From the NCBI RefSeq assembly GCF_004010195.1, contig NC_057754.1, positions 10,800,345 to 10,857,383 of the forward strand: a DNA stretch of 57,039 bases, written 5' to 3'. Shown in pieces: positions 3,700-48,044 of the stretch. Positions within the stretch are counted from its first letter, which is position 1, and the number at the start of each line of letters is the position of its first letter. Both the position numbers and the translations under genes were made by a program. Under the pieces are notes generated by a model. The model had not been told where the DNA came from. It made no database searches and worked only from the letters and a program-made list of their open reading frames with translations. The stretch comes from Chiloscyllium plagiosum (Eukaryota).

Positions 3700-4910
3700 A
3701 CTCCAATGAACGTGGATGAGTTCCAATTTGATTAACTGAAAATCCCATCACTGGAGTGACTTGTGACATTGCTGGTGTCTCACCAGATTGGATGATTGCG
3801 CAAATTTCTTCTCACACATGGAGCAGGCAAATGATCTCTTCCCAGTGTGACCTCGCTGGTGTAAAGTAAGATGAGATGATCATCTGAACCCAGTCGCACA
3901 GTGAGAGCACCTGAATGGTCTCTCATTGGTGTGAATATGTTGGTGGGACATCAGTTTCCCAGAGCTGTTAAAGCACTTCCCACAAACTGGGAATTTAAAA
4001 CGTCTATTTTCAGAGTGAATATGTTTCAAGTGCCCAGAACATTTAAAACACTTCCCACAATCGAGGCATTTAAATGGTCTTTAACCAGACTGAACACTTT
4101 GGTGTAACTTGAGGTGGGATGGGTCAATGAATCCCTGCCCACATTTAGAGCAGATGAATGGCCTCTTGCCAGTGTGACGATGCTGGTGCCGACTGAGTTT
4201 AGATGATATTTTGAACCCAGTTCCACTGTGATAGCAGCTGAATGGTCTATCATTAGTGTGAGTACATTAATGGACAATCAGTTCACCAGAACCTTTAAAG
4301 CACTTGCTACAGTTTGGACATTTAAAAGGTTTCTCTCAATGTCAATCTGTGGGTGTGCACTGAGGCGATATGACTGAGTAAATCCAATTCCACATTCAGA
4401 GCAGGTGAATGGCCTCTCCCTAGTATGAATGCACTTGTGAATGCCCCACAGTCAGAACATCTGACCCTTTCTTCCTCAGTGTAAACAAACTGATGGGACA
4501 TCAGATCAGCAGAACTCTTAAAGCACTTTCCACAACCTGGACATGGAAAAGGTCTCTTGTCAGTGTGAACAAGTTGGTGGGACTGCTGATGGCTGGAAAT
4601 TTTAAAAGCAATTTCAGTAGCTTGTACATTTATCAGTGTGAAATCGCTGGTCTGTCAGGAGGATGAATAACTGAGTGAATCCCTTCCCACACAGGAAGCA
4701 GGTCAACGGCCTCTCCCCAGTGTGAACATGTTGGGGAATTATCAGCACAGAGTAGTGACTGAATCCTTTCTCACAGGTCATGATTTTCCATAGTTTCAAC
4801 CCACTGTGACTGCATTTGTGCTTCTTGAGGCCAGTTGATTGGCTAAAGCCTTTTGTCAGAAGATATGTATCTGTTCTTCCCACTGTGAATGGTGCTTTCT
4901 CCTTCCATGG
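3700..4910 (-). pseudogene. Decayed C2H2 zinc-finger array (unit A)
   Basis: Repeated CTCTCCCCAGTGTGAA (HTGERP linker, reverse strand). Fragments such as CFLCGKGFTQ and HVHTGERP. Many stops and frameshifts. Confidence 0.85.
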
Positions 4911-5796
4911 TTAAAATCTTTAATCCTCAGGTCTTGATAAATAAAGTGACTCCATCAGATCATGACGTGATATTTGGTTTCAGTTTCATGACTTCAAATC
5001 CTTGATAAAATATCATTAGGTTCATACAGGGGAGAGGGTGTTCACCTACTCCACATGTAGGAAGGCATTTACTCAGTTATGGCTGTGAGTTTGCTCACTG
5101 AGCTGGCAGGTTTGTTTTCAGATGTTTCATCATCATGCTACGGAACATCATCAGTGAGCCTCCGGTGAAGTGCTTCACCAGAGGCTCACGATGCCCTCTT
5201 GTCCTAGCTTCACCTGTCAGTGGAAACATCAAATCTACTTCTATCTTATCCATTTCCTTCATAATTTTCTATGTTTCTACAAGAACCCTCCTCATTATTC
5301 TGAATTCCAATGTATATAATCCCAATCTACTCAGTCTCTGCGAGACTATACACTAATGTAATTTTGAAACAGTGTGTCAGGTTCTTAATTTCTTCATGAT
5401 ACAATAATAATAAATGATGTCCCAGTGATGACTGCTGTATTTTTAGGCCTTTTTCCTTTCTAACTCTGGATTCTTTCTATTCTCATATTCAGTTCCTCTA
5501 TGGACAAGTCCCAAGTCTTCGAGGGTGTCTCTTTTAATCTTGATGTGGAGGTGTCGGTGTTGGACTGGCATGGTTAAAGTTAAAAATCACTCTGAGCATT
5601 CTGAAAGCTAATACTTCCAAATAAACCTGTTGGACTATAACCTAGTGCTATGTGATTTCTAACTCTCTTAATCTTGTTATCCAGCAAAAGTATTGGTAAC
5701 ACACCCGGGATCAGTAAAAACAAAACCTGGTCTTTCCGTCAATTTCAGTGATGAGACATAATGTGTATCCCACAACAAATATCAAATAAACCATTA

Positions 5797-5997
5797 ACAA
5801 AAACAGAAGTTGCTGGAAAAGCTCAGCAGGTCTGGTAGCATCTGTGAAGAAAAATCAGAGTTAATGTTTCGGGTCAAGTGACACTTCCTTTGGCATGCAG
5901 CATTAACTCTGATTTCTCTTCATCAATGCTGCCAGACTTGCTGAGCTGTCCCATTAACTTTTGTTTTTGTTTCAGATTTATAGCATCTGCAGTTCTT
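5797..5997. mobile_element. Fold-back Penelope-terminus-derived element with degenerate hammerhead
   Basis: Inverted arms AACAAAAACAGAAGTTGCTGGAAAAGCTCAGCAGGTCTGG / GCCAGACTTGCTGAGCTG...TTTGTTTTTGTT. Centre carries GACCCGAAAC on the minus strand. Confidence 0.65.
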
Positions 5998-9049: not shown

Positions 9050-9850
9050 TCCTGCAATCACTTATGAACTCAGAAGGTGGGATATTGCAATGAATCTTCC
9101 CACACTCAGAGCAAGTGAACAGTCTCCCCATCCTGTTAACATCACTGGTGTACTGCGCAGTCAGATGATTGCTTGAAGCCACTGCTGCAGTAAGAGCTCC
9201 TGAATGGTCTGTCCTGTGTGACAGAATACACTGGTAGGAAATCAGATCACAGACTTCCAGAGCACTTTTCCCAGTCTCAGCAGGGGCAGTTGATCAGATC
9301 ATCTCAATCTCTGAGACAACAGGCTTTTCACACTTGTTAAAAGTGAGGATGGAGGGGGGAGAGAGAGAGCAAACAATGCAAAATGGCATCTCCTGTTAGA
9401 GACAATAAGATGACACACTGTGTTTTACACAAAACAGCTTTATTTGACATGTATCTACATTAACATGTGATGAAGCAGGCAGTTATTAACATTAGCAGAA
9501 ACAGACAGCAATGAACATGGCTCACTCCAGGACGTGACTAATAATAAAATCATGAACTCCCTAGTGACTCAGCAGATGTGACACCTGTGTGAATCCCATC
9601 CGAAATTGGAGCAGTTGGATGGCTTCTCCCCAGTGTGAATGTGCTGATGCCTCAGCAGGTGGGATGACTGAGAGAAACTTTTCCCACCGTCAGAGGTGAC
9701 CAGCTTCTCTCGTGTGACCTCCACAGTGCAGTGAGATAAGGTGATCACCTAAACACAACTCTACAGTGCACCTGAACAGTTTCTTGCCCCGTGTGAACAC
9801 TTTGTGCAGGTGAATGGTGGCCTCTTCCAGGTGTGAACTCTAGCATATCA
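9050..9850 (-). pseudogene. Highly decayed C2H2 ZNF remnants (unit B)
   Basis: Residual CTTCTCCCCAGTGTGAATGTG (HIHTGEK) and TTCCCACACTC (ECGK) motifs. 3' flank is paralogous to that of unit A. Confidence 0.65.
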
Positions 9851-13350: not shown

Positions 13351-14586
13351 TCAGCAAGGAAGTTGACTGAGTGACCGTTTCTCCCCAGTGTGAATTCGCT
13401 CGTGTCTCCGCAGGTGGGATGATTTGGTAAATGCCTTCCCACAATTGGTGCAGGTGAATGGTTTCTCCCCAGTGTGAATTCGCTGGTGTTCCAGCAAGTT
13501 GGACGATGAAGTGAATCTTTTTCCACATTCAGAACAGGTGAATGGTCTCGCCCCAGTGTGAACTCGCTGGTGTTCCAGTAGTTTAGTTGAGCAAATGAAT
13601 CCTTTTCCACATTGAGAACAGGTGAATGGTCTCTCCCCAGTGTGAATTCGCTGGTGTTTCAGCAAGCTGGATGTTGAAGTGAATCCCTTCCCACACTGGG
13701 AGCAGATGAACGGTCTCTCCCCAGTGTGAACTCCCTGGTGTTCCAACAGTTTCGACGACTGAGTGAACCCTTTCCCACACACGGAGCAAGTGAATGGTCT
13801 CTCCCCAGTGTGAAGTCGCTGGTGTACCTGCAGGTTGGATGACGAAGAGAATCCCTTTCCACAATCACAGCAAATGAATGGTCTCTCCCCAGTGTGAACT
13901 CTCTGATGTATCTGCAGGCTGGATGATGAAGTGAATGACTTTTCACAATTGGAGCAGGTGAATGGTCTCTCCCCAGTGTGAATCCGCTGGTGTATCTGCA
14001 GGATAGACGATCGAGTAAATCCCTTTCCACAATCGGAGCAGGTGAACGGCCTCTCCCCAGTGTGAACCCGCTGGTGCATCAGCAGGCTGGATGACCAAGT
14101 GAATCCTTTCCCACAATCGGAGCAGGTGAATGGTCTCTCCCCAGTGTGAATTCGCTGGTGTGTCTGCAGGCTGGATAACTGCACAAATCCTTTTCCACAC
14201 TCTGAACACATGAATGGTCTGTCCCCAGAATGAACTTCCTGGTCTGTCAGCAGGTTGGATGAGTGTGCAAATGTCTCCCCCCAATCGGAGCAGGTGAATG
14301 GTCTCTCTCCGGTGTGAACCGGTTGGTCTATCTGCAGGTCGGATGACAGAGTGAATCCCTTCTCACAATCAAAACAGATGAATGGCTTCTCCCCAGTGTG
14401 ACTGTTTTCATGAGTTTCCAGATGGGATGGATAAAAAAATCCTTTCCCACAATCTCCACATATTAACAGTGTCTCCCCAGTGTGACTGCACTGGCCTTTG
14501 GACATTTCAGATGAAACTTCACAGATGCTTCCACACACACATGATGTGTGTTTCTCTCCAGTGTGAACAGTGCATTTTCCTTCCAT
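13351..14586 (-). CDS. Tandem C2H2 zinc-finger protein (11 canonical plus 2 degenerate fingers)
   Basis: Open ORF from ATG at 14586 (MEGK...) with CxxC-x12-HxxxH fingers and TGERPF linkers. Candidate splice acceptor TTTTCATTTGCAG ending at 14655. Confidence 0.88.
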   Translation of the reverse strand: MEGKCTVHTGEKHTSCVCGSICEVSSEMSKGQCSHTGETLLICGDCGKGFFYPSHLETHENSHTGEKPFICFDCEKGFTLSSDLQIDQPVHTGERPFTCSDWGETFAHSSNLLTDQEVHSGDRPFMCSECGKGFVQLSSLQTHQRIHTGERPFTCSDCGKGFTWSSSLLMHQRVHTGERPFTCSDCGKGFTRSSILQIHQRIHTGERPFTCSNCEKSFTSSSSLQIHQRVHTGERPFICCDCGKGFSSSSNLQVHQRLHTGERPFTCSVCGKGFTQSSKLLEHQGVHTGERPFICSQCGKGFTSTSSLLKHQRIHTGERPFTCSQCGKGFICSTKLLEHQRVHTGARPFTCSECGKRFTSSSNLLEHQRIHTGEKPFTCTNCGKAFTKSSHLRRHERIHTGEKRSLSQLPC

Positions 14587-14929
14587 GTTCAAAACTGGTT
14601 ATGATAAACACAGTGACTGTTGGATCTGGATGTGGTTTAATTTGAAGTCTCTAACTGCAAATGAAAAATTTTCAAACAGAAAACAAGTGTATTAGGAGAA
14701 ACCAGAAGAACACAGCTTGTGAAACTGAGAGAAGTTCTGGTCAGTTGTGGAGATGACACGGAGGGAAAATGCTGGACTACCATTAAAATCAACTCATTCA
14801 CAAATCTTCTTCAGGGAAGCAAACCAGTCAGTGTTTGCACAAAACTACAGGAAGAGATAGACACGAAGGAGTTGCACCTTATAGACCTATAACTCAATCC
14901 TGTTCCTGTTTTCTCTCTTTAATCCCTCT

Positions 14930-18322: not shown

Positions 18323-18537
18323 GTAAAAACAATGACTGCAGATGCTGGAAACCAGATTCTGGATTAGTGGTGCTGGAAGAGCACAGCAGTTCAGGCAGCA
18401 TCCGAGGAGCAGTAAAATCAACGTTTCGGGCAAAAGCCCTTCATCAGGATGAAAGGCTTTTGCCCAAAACGTCGATATTACTGCTCCTCAGATGCTGCCT
18501 GAACTGCTGTGCTCTTCCAGCACCACTAATCCAGAAA
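18323..18537. mobile_element. ~215-bp fold-back Penelope-terminus element with hammerhead core
   Basis: Long inverted arms centred near 18448. 16-bp TSD AACGCTCACAATACAG at 18307-18322 and 18538-18553. Confidence 0.85.
18416..18450 (-). ncRNA. Minimal type I hammerhead ribozyme motif
   Basis: Minus strand: AUC-CUGAUGA-A-GGGC-UUUU-GCCC-GAAA-CG-U-U-GAU. Core boxes, helix II, palindromic ACGU helix III and AUC/GAU helix I are present. Confidence 0.75.
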
Positions 18538-19620: not shown

Positions 19621-21040
19621 GTTTGGAGGAGCAGGTGATGGACTTGGGTGGACAAAGTTAAAAATCACACAATACCAGGTTATAGTCCAACGGGTTTATT
19701 TGGAAGCACTGCTTTTTCATGAGGTGCTTGTGAAGCAGGACTATAAAACACAGAACTTTGCATCAAAAGATTACAGTGTCATGGAGCTGAAATGATATAT
19801 TGAACAAACCTAGACTAAGTATTTAATCTTTTAGAATGGGTTTGCTGGTTTCGTTAATATGTAAACCCCAGAACTCCTTTTAAGTCACATTCTCAAGATA
19901 ACAAGATTTTATAACGTAAGGTGCCATCTCAGCTCTGACAATGCATTGGAGGTGTGAGGTTAATGTCTGTCCCTATCCCAATCTTGTGTCAGACTGGTGG
20001 AATTTACAAAATATTACATGGATTGACTGCCTGCAAGTTATGTATTTTTTGAGCAAAATAGATTGTATCTGCAAATACAAATTCACCCCATAAACTTGTG
20101 TTGTGTGTGCATGTGAGTGTGAAATTTAGCATCACACCTAACCTGCACATCTTTGGACTGTGGGAGGCAACCCACACAGACACAGGGAGAATGTGCAAAC
20201 TCGATACTGACAATCGCTCAAGGTTGGAATTGAATCTGGGTCCCTGATGCTGTGAGGCAGCAGTACTAAGCACAGTCACTGAGCCACATCAACTAGCCAC
20301 AAAAAGACATAATCCACTATCACTAGTATCCTTACATACAAATGAGGAAGGACACTACTTTAACTGGATTAGTGGTGCTGGAAGAGCGTGGCAGTTCAGG
20401 CAGCATCCAAGGAGCTTCAAAATCGATGATTTCGAAGCTTTTTGGATGTTGCCTGAACTGCTGTGCTCTTCCAGCACCACTATTCCAGAATCTGGTTTCC
20501 AGCATCTGTAGTCATTGTTTTTACTACTTTAAGTGGGATAACACATCCATCCGCGGACAAGCCAAATAGAGCATGCACAATTCCTAGAAGCATAGCATCC
20601 AACTGGACCTCTATGAACAAACACATCAATTCGGACCCCGTCTACCACCCTCTGAAATAAAAGAACTGGAAATGACATCACCAACCCAAGGAAACCTAAA
20701 TACACAAATAGAAAGCAGGGCATAACACCAGAATTTCACTGGAGGCTCACTGATGATGTTATCTAGTATGGTGAGGAAATGTCTGCAAATGAACCTTCCA
20801 GCTCAGTGAGCAAACTTACATCCAAGACTTAGTTTAGGTTTGTTAGGTGAATTGGCTATGCTGTAAGTAATCTAATCTAATCTAATCATATCATTTGAGC
20901 TGCATGACACTAATTTTTTGCTATAAATTCTGTGTCTTACAGTCCTGCTTCACAACCACCTGATGAAGAAGCATCACTTCGAAAGGTAATGCTTCCAAAT
21001 AAACCTGTTGGACTATAACCTGGTGTTGTCTGATTTTTAA
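19619..21040. mobile_element. Inverted-arm Penelope-terminus element with nested SINE (~20120-20290), hairpin insert (~20364-20522) and Poseidon-like Penelope 3' end (~20530-20825)
   Basis: Arms AAAAATCACACAATACCAGGTTATAGTCCAAC / GTTGGACTATAACCTGGTGTTG. Imperfect TSD CTTCTTATTGGTTA / CTTCCTATTGGTCA. Inner TSD ACTACTTTAA. SMNKHINSDPVYHPL resembles a GIY-YIG C-terminus. Confidence 0.75.
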
Positions 21041-23559: not shown

Positions 23560-25847
23560 TGATTTGGAGATGCCAGTGTCGGACTGGGGTGTATGAAGTT
23601 AAAAATCGCACAGCACCAAGTTATAGTCCAATATGTTTACTTGGAAGTACGAGCTTTTCGAGTGCCGCTCTTCATCAAGTGGTTGTGGAGTACACAATTG
23701 TAAGACAAAGAACTTATAGCAAATTTTTGCAGTGAGATGTAACTGAAATTATACATTGAAAATTACCTAGATTGTTAAGTCTCATATGTTAGAATGACTG
23801 CTTCTTTCATATGTAAATCACAAAACTTATTTTTAAAAAGTTACATTCTCGAGTTAACTGTAACAATTGGTGTCAGCCCAGATAATATGTTAAGATATTG
23901 AAAGTGTTAGCCCCCTGTGTTCCCTGTCTGTTTAGGCTGATTCTAATGTAAAAAGTGAGTTAACAGAGTCTTACATGGATTCATGCAGTTTTTGACCAAA
24001 GTACAATGTAACTCAACAAGTATAAATTCACCCCACAAATTTATATGTGTATGTGTGCATGTGGTTGTGTGTGTGTGCATGTGGTTTTGTGTGTGTGTGT
24101 GTGTGTGTCTGTAGGAGTGTGTGTCTGTAGGAGTGTGTGTGTGTGTCTGTAGGAGTGCGTGTGTGTGTGTGTGTGTGTCTGTAGGAGTGTGTGTNNNNNN
24201 NNNNNNNNNNNNNNNNNNNNNNNNNNNNNNNNNNNNNNNNNNNNNNNNNNNNNNNNNNNNNNNNNNNNNNNNNNNNNNNNNNNNNNNNNNNNNNNNNNNN
24301 NNNNNNNNNNNNNNNNNNNNNNNNNNNNNNNNNNNNGGGGTGGGGAGTGTCTGTTAGAGAATTTATATGTGTGAGAGTGTAAAGTGTTTAAGTCCGTGGG
24401 ATGGTGCATGTGTGAGTGTGGGAGTGTGTGTGTCTGTGGGAGTGTGGGTGTCTGTAGGAGTGTGTGTCAGTGTATAGGAGTGCCTGTGTTTGTGTGTGTG
24501 TGTGTCTGTGAATAGTGCAATGGTGGTCATCTGTGGTGTGACATGAACCCAAGGTCCCGGTTGAGGCCTTCCCTATTGGTACCAAACTTAGCTATCAGCC
24601 TCTGCTCGGCCACTTTTCGCTGCTACCTGTCCCGAAATCCGCCTTGGAGGATGGTCACCTGAAGGTCCAAGGTCGAATGTTCTGGACCGCTGAAGAGTTC
24701 TTCAACTGGGACGGAATACTCCTGTCTGTTGATTGTTGTGAGGTGCCCATTCATCCGTTGCCATAGCCTTTGCTCAGTTTCCCCAATGTGTCATGCCTCA
24801 GGGCATCCTTGCCTGCAGCATATGAGATGGACAACGTTGGCTGAATCGCATGAGTACCTGCCACGTGCATGGTGGGAGGTGTCCCCATGCGTAATGGTGG
24901 TATCTATGTCCACACTCTGACACGTCTTGCAGCGCCTACCGTAACAGGGTTGTATGGAGTTCGGCACCCATAGGGAGGGCTTCAACCAGGAACTTGGGTT
25001 CATGTCACACTACAGATGACCACCATTGCACCACACACACACACACACTCCTATACACAGCCATACTCACACACAATCCTACAGACACAAACACTCCCAC
25101 ACTCTCACAGACTTAGACACTTTACACTCACACACACATATTTACCTCCCACACTCTCACAGACTTAGACACTTTACACTCACACACATATACACTCTCT
25201 CTCACACTCACAACCCCCACCCCAGACAGACAGACAGAGACAGACACACACATAGATTTGTGGGGTGAATTTGTACTTGCCGAGTTACATTGTACTTTGG
25301 TCAAAAACTGCATGAATCCATGTTAACTCAGTTTTTACATTAGAATCAGCCTAAACAGACAGATGTTGTAAGTGTTAGCCCTCTGTGTTCGCTGTCTGTT
25401 TAGGCTGATTCTAATGTAAAAAGTGAGTTAACATGGATTCATGCAGTTTTTGACCAAAGTACAATGTAACTCAACAATGTAACTCAGTTTTTACATTAGA
25501 ATCAGCCTAAACAGACAGCGAACACAGAGGGCTAACACTTACAACATCTTAACATATTATCTGGGCTGACACCAATTGTTACAGTTAATCTGAGAATGTA
25601 ACTTTAAAAAAAAGTTTTGTGATTTACATGTGAAAGAAGTGAAACTATCATGGTCATTCTCACAGATGAGAGACTTAACAAACAATCAAGGTATTTTTCA
25701 ATGTATAATTTCAGTTACATCATACTGTAAACCTTTGCTATAAATTCTGTGAATTACAATTGTGTACTCCACAACTACTTGATGAAGGAGCAGTGCTCCG
25801 ACAGTTAGTTGTTTCAATTAAGTCTGTTGCACTAACCTGGTGTTGTG
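23560..25847 (-). mobile_element. 5'-truncated Penelope-like element (GIY-YIG C-terminus) with inverted terminal repeat
   Basis: Minus strand ~24530-24960: PCYGRRCKTC...YSCDSANVVHLICCRQGCPEA*HIGETEQRL...RMNGH...AEQRLIAKFGT...GLNRDLG. Plus-strand copy of the 3' end starts at ~24960. 13-bp TSD TGGTGTTTAAGAA at 23547-23559 and 25848-25860. Confidence 0.88.
24045..24510. repeat. (GT)n-rich microsatellite inside the Penelope tail, spanning N-gap 24195-24336
   Basis: GTGT runs with CTGTAGGA units. Mirror (CA)n tract at ~25030-25255. Confidence 0.9.
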
Positions 25848-27003
25848 TGGTGTTTAAGAAGATGCCTTTTGCTTTTAAATTTCTTCACACAGAACATCCA
25901 AAAGATCTCTCATCAGTGTGAACAATTTGATGGGTCAGAAGGTAGGATAAACTAGTGAATTCTTTCCCACACACAGAGCAGGTGAATGGTTTCTCCCCAG
26001 TCTGAGCGGGTTGATACTTTAGTCAATTATTTTTACTTTTAAAGCTCTTCTTACAGTCAGAACATTTAAAAAGTCTCTCATCAATCTGAGCAATTTGGTG
26101 TGTCAGGAAGTGAGATCACTCAGTGAGTCCTTTCCCACACACTTATGCAGGTGTATCAATATATCTTCTCTGCTTTTAACATTCATCTCACATTTAGAAC
26201 ATTTAAATGATCTTTCATCAGAACGAACCTGCTCATAAGTCCGGAGCGTTGATTGAGCATTAATTCCCTGTCCACACATAAAGCAGGTGAATGGCTTCTC
26301 CCCATTGTGAATGTGCTGATGTGTGTACAGGTTGGACGACTGAGTGAATCCCTTCCCACACATAGAGCAGCTGAATGGCCTCTCCCCAGTGTGACTCCGT
26401 GATGAGTTTCCAACCTGATGGGTAGCTGAATCCCTTCCCACAGTCCCACAGTTTCTCCATGGTGTCAGTATCCTTGATTTTTTTTCCCAGGTTCAGTGAT
26501 TGATTGAAATCGATCTCCACAAACAGAACTTATCAATGATCTCTCCCCATCATGGATGGCGTAATTAATTTTCAGGCTGAGTAGCTGGTGAATACTCTTT
26601 CAACAGTACTTTCACTGGAACACTCTCCTTGCATGTGTATGTCTTGGTGATTTTGCAGTCACACTGATGGTTAAAATCTTTTCTTATAGACAGCATTTCT
26701 TCAGAGGCTAATGATTTCAGATGCTGATGAACTGAATGACTGTCAGTTTTTCACGTGATGCACTGTTTCACCTTCTGAATGTAAATACAAACTTCTGAAT
26801 GCCCTGCAAAAAGAACTTATTCTAAGTATTTCATTCTATGAAATAAACAAAAAGGCTATTCAGTCCAATTACTCTATTGTTTTTATGTTCTCCCCCCCAT
26901 TATCTTCATCTCAACTTTGTATTATTACTTATTTTTCTAATCCCTTGTCCGTCCTAGACATACCTAGTTTCCTTTTGAACATATCACTACTTTGTTTCCT
27001 GCA

Positions 27004-27808
27004 TGATTTGGAGATGCCGGTGTTGGACTGGGGTGTACAAAGTTAAAAATCACACAACTGGAAATGTGTTGCTGGAAAAGCGCAGCAGGTCAGGCAACAT
27101 CCAGGGAACAGGAGAATCGACGTTTCGGGCATAAGCCCTTCTTCAGGAACGTCGATTCTCCTGTTCCCTGGATGCTGCCTGTGCCCGAAACGTCGATTCT
27201 CCTGTTCCCTGGATGCTGCCTGACCTGCTGCGCTTTTCCAGCAACACATTTCCAGCTCTGATCTCCAGCATCTGCAGACCTTACTTTCTCCTTAAAAATC
27301 ACACAACACCAGGTTATAGTCCAACAGGTTTAATTGGAAGCACACTAGCTTTCGGAGCTTGCAGAGTTACATTGTACTTTGCTCAAAAACTGCATGCATT
27401 CATGTAGAACTCTGCGCTCAAAAACGGCGTTATCTCACTTTTTAGATTATAATCAATCTAAACATCATGGCATAGACAGAGAACACAGGGGGCCAACAGC
27501 TTCAATATATTCTCTAGCTATCACCATTGTTAACAGCTAACCCAAGAACACAACGTTTTAATAAAAAAAGGTTTTGTGATTTACACATGAAAGAAGTGAA
27601 ACTATCACTGTGTTCTAACAGATGAAAGGCTTAACAATCAATTTTTCAATGTATAATTTCAGTTACATCACACTGTAAATTTTTGCTATAAATTCTGTGT
27701 GTTACGATCGAGCCCTCCACTATCACCTGATGAAGGAGCGTCGCTCTGGAAGCTAGCATGCTTCCAATTAAATCTGTTGGACGATAACCTGGTGTTGTGT
27801 GATTTTTA
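27004..27808. mobile_element. Coding-free inverted-arm Penelope-terminus element with nested second-family hairpin (27059-27291)
   Basis: Outer TSD ACTTTGTTTCCTGCA at 26989-27003 and 27809-27823. Inner TSD TTAAAAATCACACAAC at 27043-27058 and 27292-27307. Confidence 0.85.
27117..27149 (-). ncRNA. Minimal type I hammerhead ribozyme motif
   Basis: Minus strand: UC-CUGAAGA-A-GGGC-UUAU-GCCC-GAAA-CG-U-C-GA, with GUC cleavage triplet. Confidence 0.75.
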
Positions 27809-28129
27809 ACTTTGTTTCCTGCACCATTTCCTGTGAATTTCAGGTGAATTCTCTAAATGAAGAAATCTCATGTGAAAACATTTTCTACATATTAACCCCA
27901 TCCAAAACATGGATAATTTTCAATTGCTGTGTCAATTCACTGCTGAGCCTTCCTTAAAGGCCCCAGGCTGTTCAATTTTTCCCAAAGGCTGCATTATTTT
28001 AAGCTTATAAACCTCTATCTGTGTCAGTGCAGGATGGAGATTGGGAAGAGCCAAACATTTCTCTGAGTTGCAGTTTGCTTATCCTCCCATTCTCCCCACC
28101 TGGAAAAGGAGTTTATAAAACCCATCTTG

Positions 28130-29985: not shown

Positions 29986-30805
29986 CTCTATTTCTGTAGC
30001 TACTTATTTTAGAATCATTGATATAAGCCTTCAGGGCCAAGGGCCTTATCTGACTTCAGTCCCATTAGTTTGTTGAATACTACTTAATGCCACATCTGTA
30101 ACGCAGCCACCATCTTCTTCAGTACGCCATTTCATGGTCACTGTTCTTGAGGGGATGTTTTACTCTGATGTAGTTTATTAAGCCTGTCACATTTCACACC
30201 ACCAGATCCAAATTGGCAACTTCCTTCATCACGTCCCTTCTGCAACACTTGCCTCTTTGGACAGTTATGGAAATATTTTTCTCTGAAATTTATTTCTCTC
30301 TGTAAAAAAGGCTTTTATGGTGAAGGAAGAAACGGAATCTTGTTACAGATTTAATTACAGAATGAATCATGACAGGTATGTACTTCCTGACACCACTCTA
30401 TGTCAGTACCACTTTATATGTTCTCCCTCAGTGTTGGGGATGTACACTTACCATTTGATAAAATTAACAGCTCCAGTCAGGGCCAGTAGTGTGTTTATCC
30501 TCTGTGTGGCTGCCAAGATCACTCAGCAAGTGGGATGATTGGTTGAATTCATTCCCACACAGAACAAATGAATGGCTTCTGCCTGGTGTGAATTTACAGG
30601 TGTGCCAGCAGGTTGTAAGTCTGAGAGAATCATTTTTCCACATCGTGTAAATTCACCAGTGCTTCTGCAGAGTGGATGAATCAGTGATTTTCTTCTCACA
30701 CACAGAACTGTCTCACTCCAGTGTGAACCCACTGGAGTGAGAACTTTGGCAAGACTGAATCAATCTATTCCCACACTGAGCACTTGTATGGCCTTTCCCA
30801 AATGT

Positions 30806-31453
30806 ACAAAGTTAAAAATCACACAACACCAGGTTATAGTCCAACAGATTTAATTGGAAGCACACTGGCTTTCGGAGTGACGCTCCTTCATCAGGTGATA
30901 GTGGAGGGCTCAATCCTAACACACAGAATTTATAGCAAAAATTTACAGTGCAATGTAACTGAAATTATACATTGAAAAATTGATTGTCTGTTAAGCCTTT
31001 CATCTGTTAGAACACAGTGATAGTTTCACTTCTTTCATGTGTAAATCACAAAACCTTTTTTTAAAATTTGCATTCTCGGGTAGGCTTTTAACAATGGTGA
31101 TAGCCAGACAATATGTTGAAGGTGTTAACAGCTTGTTAACAGCTAACCAGAGAATGCAACTTTTTAAAAAAGGTTTTGTGATTTACACATGAAAGAAGTG
31201 AAACTATCATTGTATTCTAACAGATGAAAGGCTTAATAGACAATCAATTTTTCAATGTATAATTTCAGTTACATCACACTGTAAATTTTTGCTATAAATT
31301 CTGTGTTACGATCGAGCCCTCCACTATCACCTGATGAAGGAGCGTCGCTCCGAAAGCTAGTGTGCTTCCAATTAAACCTGTTGGACTATAACCTGGTGTT
31401 GTGTGATTTTTAAACTTTGTACGCCCCAGTCCAACACCGGCATCTCCAAATCA
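30806..31453. mobile_element. ~650-bp coding-free palindromic Penelope-terminus element, one hammerhead motif per arm
   Basis: ~300-bp inverted arms about a centre near 31130. 12-bp TSD TTTCCCAAATGT at 30794-30805 and 31454-31465. Confidence 0.9.
31328..31362 (+). ncRNA. Minimal type I hammerhead ribozyme motif (intact core)
   Basis: CAC-CUGAUGA-A-GGAGC-GUC-GCUCC-GAAA-GC-U-A-GUG: helix I CAC/GUG, 5-bp helix II, palindromic AGCU helix III, CUA triplet. Confidence 0.8.
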
Positions 31454-32794
31454 TTTCCCAAATGTGAACTTGCTAGTCTCTCAGCAGGTGGGATGAATGA
31501 GTGAACCTCTTCCCACACTCAGAGCAGTTGAACCGCCTCTTCCCAGTGTGAACTCTCAGGTGTAAATGCCAAGCAGCTGAATGTGTAAGTGTCTTCCCAC
31601 AATTAAGCTGGTGATTGGCCACTCCCCAGTGTGAACCCACTGGTGTGTCTGATGGTGTGAATCCTTCAAAGCAGACTGCATAGATAAAGCTCTCTCCTAA
31701 ATTCAAAGACCAACAATATTCAGGTTCCAATGAATTAAGTGACTGTCAGATCCTTTCACAACATTTGGTTTCAGACTTCTGCAACTTTTCTATTCTAGTT
31801 TCCTGTTAAAGGTGATTACATCTTAGTATAAGATGGACATTCAAAGCAGAATACAGAATATTTCTTCTGTATTCACTTCCCAAAAACTGTAAATCTGTAA
31901 CCCATACACTCTCCTTCCATGGACTCTGAATTATGTATGGGCTCTGAATTCTCCCAAAGGTGTCAATTTGATGATCAATGGAACCTTGCTCATTGCTGAG
32001 CACATGGATCATGAAATATAAAAACAGGAACAGGACATTCATCCCATTGCACCAGCTCCACCTCTCAAAATTAGCATAATTGTGCTGATCTATTTTTAAA
32101 CTTGATTTTCCTGATAAACCTATAACCATCAACACCCTTGTCAATCTAAAAGCTGTCTGCTGCAGGCTAATGATCCAGTTTCCATAGTTGCCTAAGGGAC
32201 ATCACTCCACAGACTAACAACTCTCAGAGCAGAAATTCTGTATCTTTGAAATGAGAAAGCCCTCATTTGTGATCTTTGTCACTGAGTTGTAGAATCCCTC
32301 ACAAGAGTAAACAATTTCTCAGCACCTATCCAATCAAAGGGCTTCAATTCTATTTGTTTCAATAAGATCACGTCTCATTCATTTAAAGACTCAGTCAAGT
32401 GAACCTTTTCAAACTGCTTCCAAAGTCGGTATGTCTCTCCTTAAGGACACAGACCCAAGGAATAGACTCTGGATCAACCCTCACCAATGCTCTACACAGT
32501 GATAAGAAGATCTAACATTTAAACTCTTTCAGCAAAGGTCAACATTCCAAAGTTCCATCCCAATTACGCAATATCTGCTTGCTAACTTGCTTTGACTCAA
32601 GTAGCAGGACAGCAGATTCCTCCGTACAGCAGCCTTGTGCAGAATCTTTCCATTTAAATAATATTCAACTATTCAATTATTTCGGTCAAAGTGGGATTTA
32701 TTACATATTATGATATAGGTGCCATTGCCTTCACCTCCACGCGTACTCGGCCCAATTATATTCCATTTTAGAGTGCACCTTCCTGCTTTCCTAC

Positions 32795-46592: not shown

Positions 46593-46749
46593 GTGCCTGT
46601 CTCGTAAATAGGAGATTCTGAGGTCAAATCTTGATGTTGCATGTCCTGTACATTGAAAGCCACCTTGTGCCTTTTTTGTGCTGTATATAGTAACAATAAA
46701 GGTCATATTTTGAGTCTTCTTCAATTACTCTGACTTTCATAGATAGATA

Positions 46750-48044
46750 TGAGTTCTATCAGAAGGGTCTCCCCAGTATGAACACGCTGGTGTGCCATGA
46801 GATGAAGTTTCTGAGTGAATTCCTTTCCACACTCACAACAGGTAAGTGGTCTCTCTCCATTGTGCGTCCTCTGGCGTGCACTGAGTTGAGATGACCATAT
46901 AAACATGGATCCACAGTGAGAGCACCTGAATGGTCTATTATCAGTGTGAACACATTGATGTGACTTCAGTTCCCCTGAGCTTTTATAACATTTCCCACAA
47001 TCTGAACATTTGAAAGATCTCTCCTCAAGTGTGAACACACTGGTGTGCCTTGAGTCAATGCATCCCTGGCCACATTCAGACCAAGTAAATGGCCTTTCTC
47101 TAGTGCGAAAACACTGTGTCTAGTGAGTTGTGATGATTTTCTAAACCCAAACCACAGTGAGAGCACCTGAACATGTAAATAGGTCGATGGAGCATCAGTT
47201 CCATGGCATGTTTAAAGCACTTCCTGCAGCATGAACATTTAAAAGATCTCTCAGTGTGAACACGTTGATGGAACTGCAGATGGCTGGAACTTTTAAAGCA
47301 CTTTTCACAGTCTGAACATTTAAACGGTCTCTTCACAGTATGAACCTGGTGTGCCTTGAGGTCATGCGACCGAATAAAGCCAATTTCACAGTCAGGGTAG
47401 ATGAATGGCCTCTCCCCAGTGTGCATGTCCTACTTGACAGTGAGGTGAGATGACCACTTGAAGCCAGCTCCAGAATCAAGAGTATCTGAACCATCTCTCC
47501 TCAGTGTGAACATGCTGATGTGACATCAGTGACATTAGAACTTTTGAAGCACTTCCCACAGTCCGTATGTTTAAAAGGTATCTCCTCAGTGTGAACCTGC
47601 TAGTGTTCCTTGAGGAGGGGTGATTGAGTGAATCGACAGGTGTATGGCCTCTTCCCAGAATGAATGCACAGGTGAACAGTGAGTTTAGATGACCACTTGA
47701 AGACAGCCCCACAGTCAAACCATCTGAACCGTCTCTCCGCAGTGTGAACATGCCGATGTGACATCAGGTTACTGGAACTTTCAAAGCACTTCCCACAGTC
47801 TATGCATTTAAAAGGTTGCTCCCCAGTGTGAAGTTGCTCATGTATGAGTAGGGTTGATAACTGGGTGAATCCCTTTCCACAACGGGACCAGATGAACAGC
47901 CTCTCCCCAGCGTGAACACATTGGTAAATGTTCAGTGCAGAGCTGTGACTGAATCTTTTCTCAAGATCCTCGAATTTCTATGATTTCTCCCCAGTTGAAC
48001 TGCATTTGTGCTTCTTGAGGCCATTTGATTGGCTCAAGCCTTTT
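46750..48044 (-). pseudogene. Decayed C2H2 ZNF array (unit F), 5' end cut by insertions
   Basis: [35 protein letters not shown] and CSDCEKCFKSSSHLQFHQRVHT, with multiple frameshifts. Confidence 0.88.

Follow-up and report, generated by a model that had tools for sequence, protein, structure and literature searches.

How did a 648-bp palindrome with a hammerhead ribozyme motif on each strand come to lie within a zinc-finger array, and does it move as a unit of its own? This question is raised by the locus at 30794-31465 of the window, the whole 57,039-nucleotide stretch of DNA analysed here. Most likely, the palindrome is a one-off insertion of two head-to-head, 5'-truncated 3' ends of a Penelope-like element (PLE), made from two cDNAs that were primed separately at the nicks in the two target strands (probability about 0.85). 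A one-off inverted Penelope integration product was one of two readings offered in the original prediction, and it is the one borne out by the target site duplication (TSD), the tail on one side only, the unique junction and the existence of relatives that bear a reverse transcriptase (RT). The palindrome itself is ordinary, one of thousands of inverted stubs. Its value is as a record of mechanism, as one data point for two-template priming.

The insertion comprises 648 bp between two copies of a 12-bp TSD (TTTCCCAAATGT; plus strand), which are exact, as had been claimed, and lie at 30794-30805 and 31454-31465. Its inverted arms (30804-31094 versus 31133-31422) align in self-BLAST with 273 matches, 16 mismatches and two small indels (about 94% identity, E=0.0), so that the near-identical arms of about 300 bp described earlier are confirmed at about 290 bp. 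The left arm (30806-31127, sense on the minus strand) is tail-less, and corresponds to the 5'-truncated 3' end (pLTR) of a PLE; it maps to positions 306-629 of a reference end taken from a related locus (L064:3769-4428). The right arm (31133-31422, sense on the plus strand) is a second 5'-truncated copy of the same element end and maps, with its tail included, to positions 340-658 of that reference. The tail, a 31-nt extension on the right arm only (31423-31453, plus strand), is a feature missing from the earlier description and fits the 30-40-bp tail reported for PLEs (PMC8557442, PMC3846280). The tail-less arm goes 33 nt deeper into the centre than the tailed arm (31095-31127). At the centre junction (31123-31143, plus strand) there is a 5-nt microhomology together with a 10-nt tandem duplication, in which 31123-31132 repeats 31134-31143. 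Both arms end within the non-coding end of the element, and there is no ORF between them. The left arm carries about 10 private changes and the right arm 4; letters private to this locus include those at 31082, 31083, 31087 and 31105. Five arm-private changes are bunched in 31078-31105, at most 30 nt from the junction, and are possibly repair-synthesis errors made at joining.

The family to which the arms belong is large, with at least 30,091 copies in the assembly of a 31-mer located near the outer end. At the reference locus, the same two inverted ends flank coding sequence that includes an RT (PF00078, E 1.9e-8). A second relative (L176) has a 437-aa open frame with an RT (PF00078, E 1.1e-5, below the cut-off), a CX4CxxC linker and a GIY-YIG-like motif, and this frame ends about 100 nt before the same terminal sequence. 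RT/endonuclease-like frames are found at both loci immediately upstream of terminal sequence of the arm type. In the endonuclease-like text of L176, two cysteines fall between the GIY- and YIG-like boxes and histidines follow later, which fits the CCHH definition (PMC8557442). The endonuclease of the family is assigned by motif alone: a Pfam search of the family proteins for a GIY-YIG domain gave no match, and the best GIY-YIG match among PDB sequences, to T4 endonuclease II, had an E value of only 0.89. Judged by their sequence, the arms are the 3' end of an EN+ PLE with a linker of the Neptune/Nematis type, as defined in PMC8557442. Neptune is preferred over Nematis solely because it is one of two groups reported to be widespread in vertebrates.

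Hallmarks of an EN+ PLE insertion that apply to this locus are a link to an RT-bearing ORF, a head-to-head inverted truncated copy, a one-sided tail, a TSD and a minimal hammerhead. The inverted layout is already published, and has been since at least 2013. The general PLE scheme includes an inverted 5'-truncated copy and a one-sided tail of 30-40 bp (PMC8557442). Pen2a_Av of Adineta vaga, like the palindrome, has a head-to-head inverted 5'-truncated copy, microhomology at the junction and a 31-bp tail on one arm only, and the TSD around the whole unit is 9-10 bp in Pen2a_Av compared with 12 bp here (PMC3846280). Unlike Pen2a_Av as described in that report (PMC3846280), the palindrome is truncated in the non-coding end on both arms and encloses no ORF. 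In Schistosoma, dual motifs on opposite strands, 100-700 bp apart, were ascribed to truncated PLEs (PMC4209133, Cervera and De la Pena 2014).

The other reading in the original prediction was a self-propagating, retrozyme-like hairpin family, in which transcripts of the palindrome would be cleaved by their own hammerheads and returned to the genome as a unit by the Penelope enzyme; many copies sharing the centre junction had been proposed as its sign. The palindrome does have cis ends, a TSD and one intact motif, and cargo flanked by pLTRs is described as movable in trans (PMC3846280). However, its centre junction is unique. In pattern searches that tolerate at most two mismatches, made on a 3.56-Gb assembly that may be incomplete, the centre 24-mer gave one match (exact search) and the centre 28-mer gave one match with up to two mismatches allowed. 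A gapped centre pattern gave two matches, the second of which (L032) we rejected as a further copy of the junction, as it is a chance match in unrelated DNA, outside any element. Contig depth in the junction bin was 12.6 and 26.5 in two public DNA-type runs, near the flank level, whereas the arms reached 1e4-1e6; no contig spanning the whole palindrome was found in any run examined. Given that the junction is single in the assembly and that its depth is near that of the flanks, the palindrome unit has not spread.

Animal non-LTR retrozymes (PMC7229834; bioRxiv 10.64898/2026.07.22.740005) resemble the palindrome in that they are non-coding, a few hundred bp long, carry a type I hammerhead and are akin to PLE pLTRs. 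They are described in the same sources as tandem repeats in direct orientation, in which two or more hammerheads on the same strand give rise to unit-length and circular RNA, whereas the palindrome consists of inverted arms with a single sense motif on each strand and is present as a single copy. It therefore lacks both the two or more direct repeats with same-strand hammerheads by which retrozymes are recognized (bioRxiv 10.64898/2026.07.22.740005) and multiple copies of the unit, its junction occurring once.

The hammerheads themselves are of the minimal kind. On the plus strand, a type I motif at 31328-31362 has a conserved core, a stem I of 3 bp, an additional A ahead of stem II and a palindromic stem III that lacks a loop, with the cut predicted after 31359. 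Its 35-mer has 5,931 exact copies genome-wide. The position given in the original prediction was right, but the term "intact" needs a qualifier, as this is a minimal motif missed by Rfam: a scan of the window gave 14 matches at E<=1, with no hammerhead among them. The miRNA-type matches in that scan were discarded, being under the gathering score and located on hairpins. Like the minimal metazoan PLE hammerheads (PMC4209133), the motif has an extra base between positions 9 and 10.1, a G10.1-C11.1 pair, a loopless palindromic 15.2-16.2 and a short helix I, which is 3 bp here versus 4-5 bp in the Schistosoma families of that report. The mirror motif on the minus strand lies at 30863-30897 (30863-30898 had been given earlier) and carries the change of U16.1 to C noted earlier (30867), plus a stem II mismatch (30878); with these two changes it is likely dead. 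The change at 30867 is rare in the family, occurring in 2 of 94 arms. We rejected the idea that U16.1C was selected to protect the host strand, given that with about 10 private changes in 324 nt, a hand estimate puts the chance of one falling on any of about 13 core positions at roughly one in three. The 12 vs 4 split of arm differences is not significant (p 0.077), and it becomes smaller once the linked haplotype is removed.

Folding with ViennaRNA gave stem II a pairing probability of 0.99 for the isolated motif, which fell to 0.78 within a single arm and to 0.0 within the whole palindrome, and the hammerhead pairing probability was also 0.0 in a transcript that ends at the motif. With transcription from either strand, the antisense arm is made before the hammerhead-bearing arm. 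The fold of the whole unit, at about -455 kcal/mol, predicts a stem of about 290 bp, in line with the long dsRNA stem anticipated earlier, and this stem would be predicted to bury the dimer-dependent hammerhead of the palindrome. Minimal PLE hammerheads are reported to show no cleavage as monomers and low cleavage as dimers (PMC4209133), and the hammerhead of PAc, a Poseidon element of Anolis carolinensis, required protein (PMC11167929). Because the stem would bury a single dimer-dependent hammerhead, the palindrome is expected to be cleaved poorly and to yield no unit-length RNA of the retrozyme type. With a unique junction, single motifs that are inverted rather than tandem, and a hammerhead predicted to be paired into the stem, we find propagation of the palindrome as a ribozyme-cut unit scarcely credible.

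The one-off insertion reading leads to the question of how such insertions look across the family. We surveyed 100 listed places of the 3' 31-mer (those in the first 9.9 Mb of contig C1, from a total of 30,091), which represent 88 insertions. An inverted arm was adjacent in 46 of the 88, counting those at most 80 nt away and leaving out longer inversions. Tailed and tail-less arms were paired in 42 of these 46, all 42 with different junction coordinates. The tail-less arm reached deeper inward in 25 of the 42 and the tailed arm in 14, and the two were equal in 3. The outer ends of the 100 sampled arms cluster at about 620-630 and about 650-660 of the reference. A second sample of 50 insertions, anchored on the hammerhead and biased in that five were picked for opposed motifs, contained 31 inverted insertions, 28 of them with a tailed and a tail-less arm. 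TSDs of at least 10 nt (one mismatch allowed) were found around 54 of 76 pooled inverted insertions, compared with 7 of 202 mismatched-flank controls, with a mode of 12-13.

Half of the inner ends are concentrated at the 5' border of the hammerhead, where 66 of 131 arms stop within positions 525-540 of the reference (L064:3769-4428), yielding stubs of 95-130 nt. From the position of this hotspot, it likely represents the RNA 5' end or an RT stop. Cleavage by the hammerhead was rejected as the main source of inner ends, as only 5 of the 131 arm ends fall at its predicted cut (565-569).

Junctions in the family are not always unique, because a 28-nt mini-palindrome centre recurs in 54 exact copies, among 272 loci with related centres. 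This recurrence could be taken in favour of propagation as a hairpin unit, but the loci that share the short centre differ both in the side of the tail and in their arm differences. Of the 54 loci, 30 were examined: 16 carry a left-hand tail, 9 a right-hand tail and 5 no tail, and any one arm difference recurs in at most 4 of the 30. Since tails occur on both sides, a single master for this centre is impossible. We rejected a self-propagating mini-element on these grounds; the recurrence fits the hotspot of inner ends, with the centre likely remade each time rather than inherited by descent. The same short centre is common to three hammerhead-anchored insertions outside the 28 (tail-less on both arms, or counted once). 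Among the mini-palindromes L178-L207, one flank is common to L184 and L191 and another to L191 and L205, which suggests insertion into, or capture of, other repeats.

The two arms of the palindrome carry different family haplotypes, and this bears on the number of templates involved. Only the left arm has a linked variant at 30912-30921 (minus strand), consisting of two substitutions (30912, 30916) and 2 extra nt. The 34-mer of this haplotype has 789 exact copies genome-wide, and by hand count the first 100 listed of 4,919 matches included 58 of the right-arm form and 18 of the long form, each of the latter having both substitutions. In the 76 palindromes examined, a family-wide 2-nt indel is discordant between arms in 10 of 59 scorable cases, and the choice between AATAAA and ATTAAA in 6 of 63. 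This discordance is far above the background rate, with other 2-nt indels amounting to 6 in 6,244 aligned columns; random pairing of arms would give about 29 discordant cases in 59.

It could be argued that the insertion was made from one template, by fold-back (self-priming) or twin priming, and that the arm differences arose later through gene conversion or through template switching. Self-priming is the published hypothesis for head-to-head junctions, proposed for Adineta Penelopes (PMC3846280), and conversion donors are plentiful, with more than 30,000 family copies. In addition, the arms agree at the indel site in 49 of 59 pairs, and those of the palindrome have three other minority variants in common (30900, 30945, 31063). 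In the mini-palindrome L200, one rare variant located past the hammerhead is found in both arms. Given the agreement of the 49 arm pairs and the matching arms of L200, a one-template origin is also common. However, simple fold-back predicts a longer tailed arm and identical arms, and is rejected for this locus because neither holds: in this palindrome, as in 25 of 42 insertions, it is the tail-less arm that is longer, and the discordant block is a complete three-change haplotype. These points tell against simple fold-back and are compatible with conversion or switching, and overall we consider a single template rather unlikely for this palindrome. Because the arms carry different family haplotypes, separate templates are favoured over fold-back. 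Thus, where the Pen2a_Av report proposes self-priming (PMC3846280), the mixed haplotypes and the longer tail-less arm of the palindrome point to two primed cDNAs.

For an insertion by two separately primed cDNAs, the putative GIY-YIG enzyme of the element would nick the two target strands about 12 bp apart, and reverse transcription would start at two internal sites bounding the tail, giving one tailed and one tail-less arm. The cDNAs may have been copied from two templates, or from two repeat copies of one tandem RNA. Both would have stopped early and been joined via the 5-nt microhomology, leaving the 10-nt duplication, and the palindrome would then have degenerated, carried along in a defunct zinc-finger exon. 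This proposal has parallels in the PAc protein, a predicted dimer that in vitro cuts and extends both target strands and uses two RT start sites bounding the tail (PMC11167929). PAc is a Penelope/Poseidon element, whereas the family of the palindrome has the CX4CxxC linker of Neptune/Nematis; PAc insertion needs no hammerhead, and inverted products were not reconstituted in the available portion of that work (PMC11167929). More generally, we moderately favour the view that head-to-head PLE insertions are made by one complex acting on two RNA templates, one per nick, which contradicts self-priming, and that the poly(A) site of the pLTR works and is dispersed in tens of thousands of copies. Mismatch between arm haplotypes can be used on genomic data to tell two-template priming apart from fold-back. 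In LINE-1 twin priming, both target nicks prime cDNA, resulting in an inversion within one TSD and microhomology at the joint, with each cDNA copied from a different part of one RNA. In contrast to LINE-1, both cDNAs here would copy the same end, giving a palindrome. A literature search by title and abstract, with most subscription papers outside its reach, found no two-template or twin-priming model of PLE inversions, nothing on shark PLE hammerheads and nothing on PLE poly(A) signals, which does not imply their absence from print.

The host site is a decayed C2H2 zinc-finger array on the minus strand (approximately 30500-31745; Pfam, tblastn), which is split by the insertion. Pfam matches to zf-C2H2 are weak and below cut-off for 31473-31742, with none for the left flank, and tblastn with the intact zinc-finger (ZNF) frame of the window reveals in-frame stops on both sides. 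Across the empty site, the longest stop-free stretches in the three frames are 35, 32 and 15 aa. The original prediction of a location inside a ZNF exon holds in that a C2H2 array is found at the flanks, but the array is decayed, with stops on both sides, and is better described as a pseudo-exon.

Contigs from organism B contain, in one case, the left flank plus 24 nt of the arm and, in another, the right flank plus 4 nt of the tail. The insertion is likely common to organism B, although both contigs miss the 31-letter bridging rule. Over three contigs, the flanks of organisms A and B differ at 36 of 1,120 nt, a divergence of about 3%. Since the arm-private changes match this divergence, there is no sign of constraint on the palindrome, which looks like an old insertion under neutral decay.

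The element end also carries a poly(A) signal. An ATTAAA hexamer is found in the left arm at 30849-30854 (minus strand) and, by sequence, in the right arm at 31371-31376 (plus strand), and ATTAAA or AATAAA occupies this place in 88 of 100 sampled arms. In run X21 (raw, poly(A) single-cell, about 2% read), poly(T) loose ends occur at 30834 (187 reads) and 30837 (175 reads), 12-15 nt past ATTAAA; these are family reads, which are not assigned to a locus. The addition site has no A-run and is followed by a GU-rich stretch. The poly(A) site (30834-30854 on minus, 31371-31391 on plus) closely follows the hammerhead cut and precedes both RT start sites, and polyadenylated family RNAs therefore lack the tail region. 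It appears from these reads that the family end serves for polyadenylation at some place or places in the genome. The reads suggest that family copies could end transcripts by a normal poly(A) signal rather than by the ribozyme, and should a copy terminate a host transcript, its poly(A) signal would be a likelier cause than hammerhead cleavage.

Could the palindrome have been co-opted as a regulator that ends or silences transcripts of the ZNF locus, through its poly(A) signal or its dsRNA stem? The left arm has the same sense as the ZNF strand, with an intact ATTAAA, a GU-rich stretch downstream and family reads polyadenylated there, and the insertion is apparently common to a second organism. 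However, stop codons interrupt the ZNF array to either side of the insertion, and the private changes fit the flank divergence of about 3%. In X21, 1,341 reads fell on the arm, 35 of them at 99% identity or more; 0 of 101 reads over 31087 had the letter of this locus, depth was 0 in the left flank and 0.04 in the junction bin. These values come from about 2% of one 3'-biased library, and are a weak indication that the locus is silent in RNA; X16 and X17, whose contigs are of uncertain kind, did not enter the assessment of expression. The suggestion that the insertion could terminate or silence host transcripts is thus unsupported, given a pseudo-exon and the lack of any read assignable to the locus in this one thin test, and we regard co-option as very unlikely.

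Other parts of the window have related features. A different repeat family, which bears a motif resembling a minimal hammerhead, forms short palindromes at 5796-5971, 18357-18536, 20364-20488 and 27058-27255, and hammerhead-like motif matches of that family occur at 18453, 27152 and 56936. More copies of the Penelope family of the palindrome are found at 25282-25857, where 25282-25549 forms an internal palindrome, and at 27004-27815. At 27004-27360, the other hammerhead-bearing repeat breaks into the tail end of one family. Just one long zinc-finger frame is intact in the window; it lies at 13353-14598 (minus strand) and encodes 415 aa with 11 C2H2 fingers, and the remaining ZNF arrays, near 3750-4800, 9200-9650, 23000, 26000 and 46700-48000, are broken or short.
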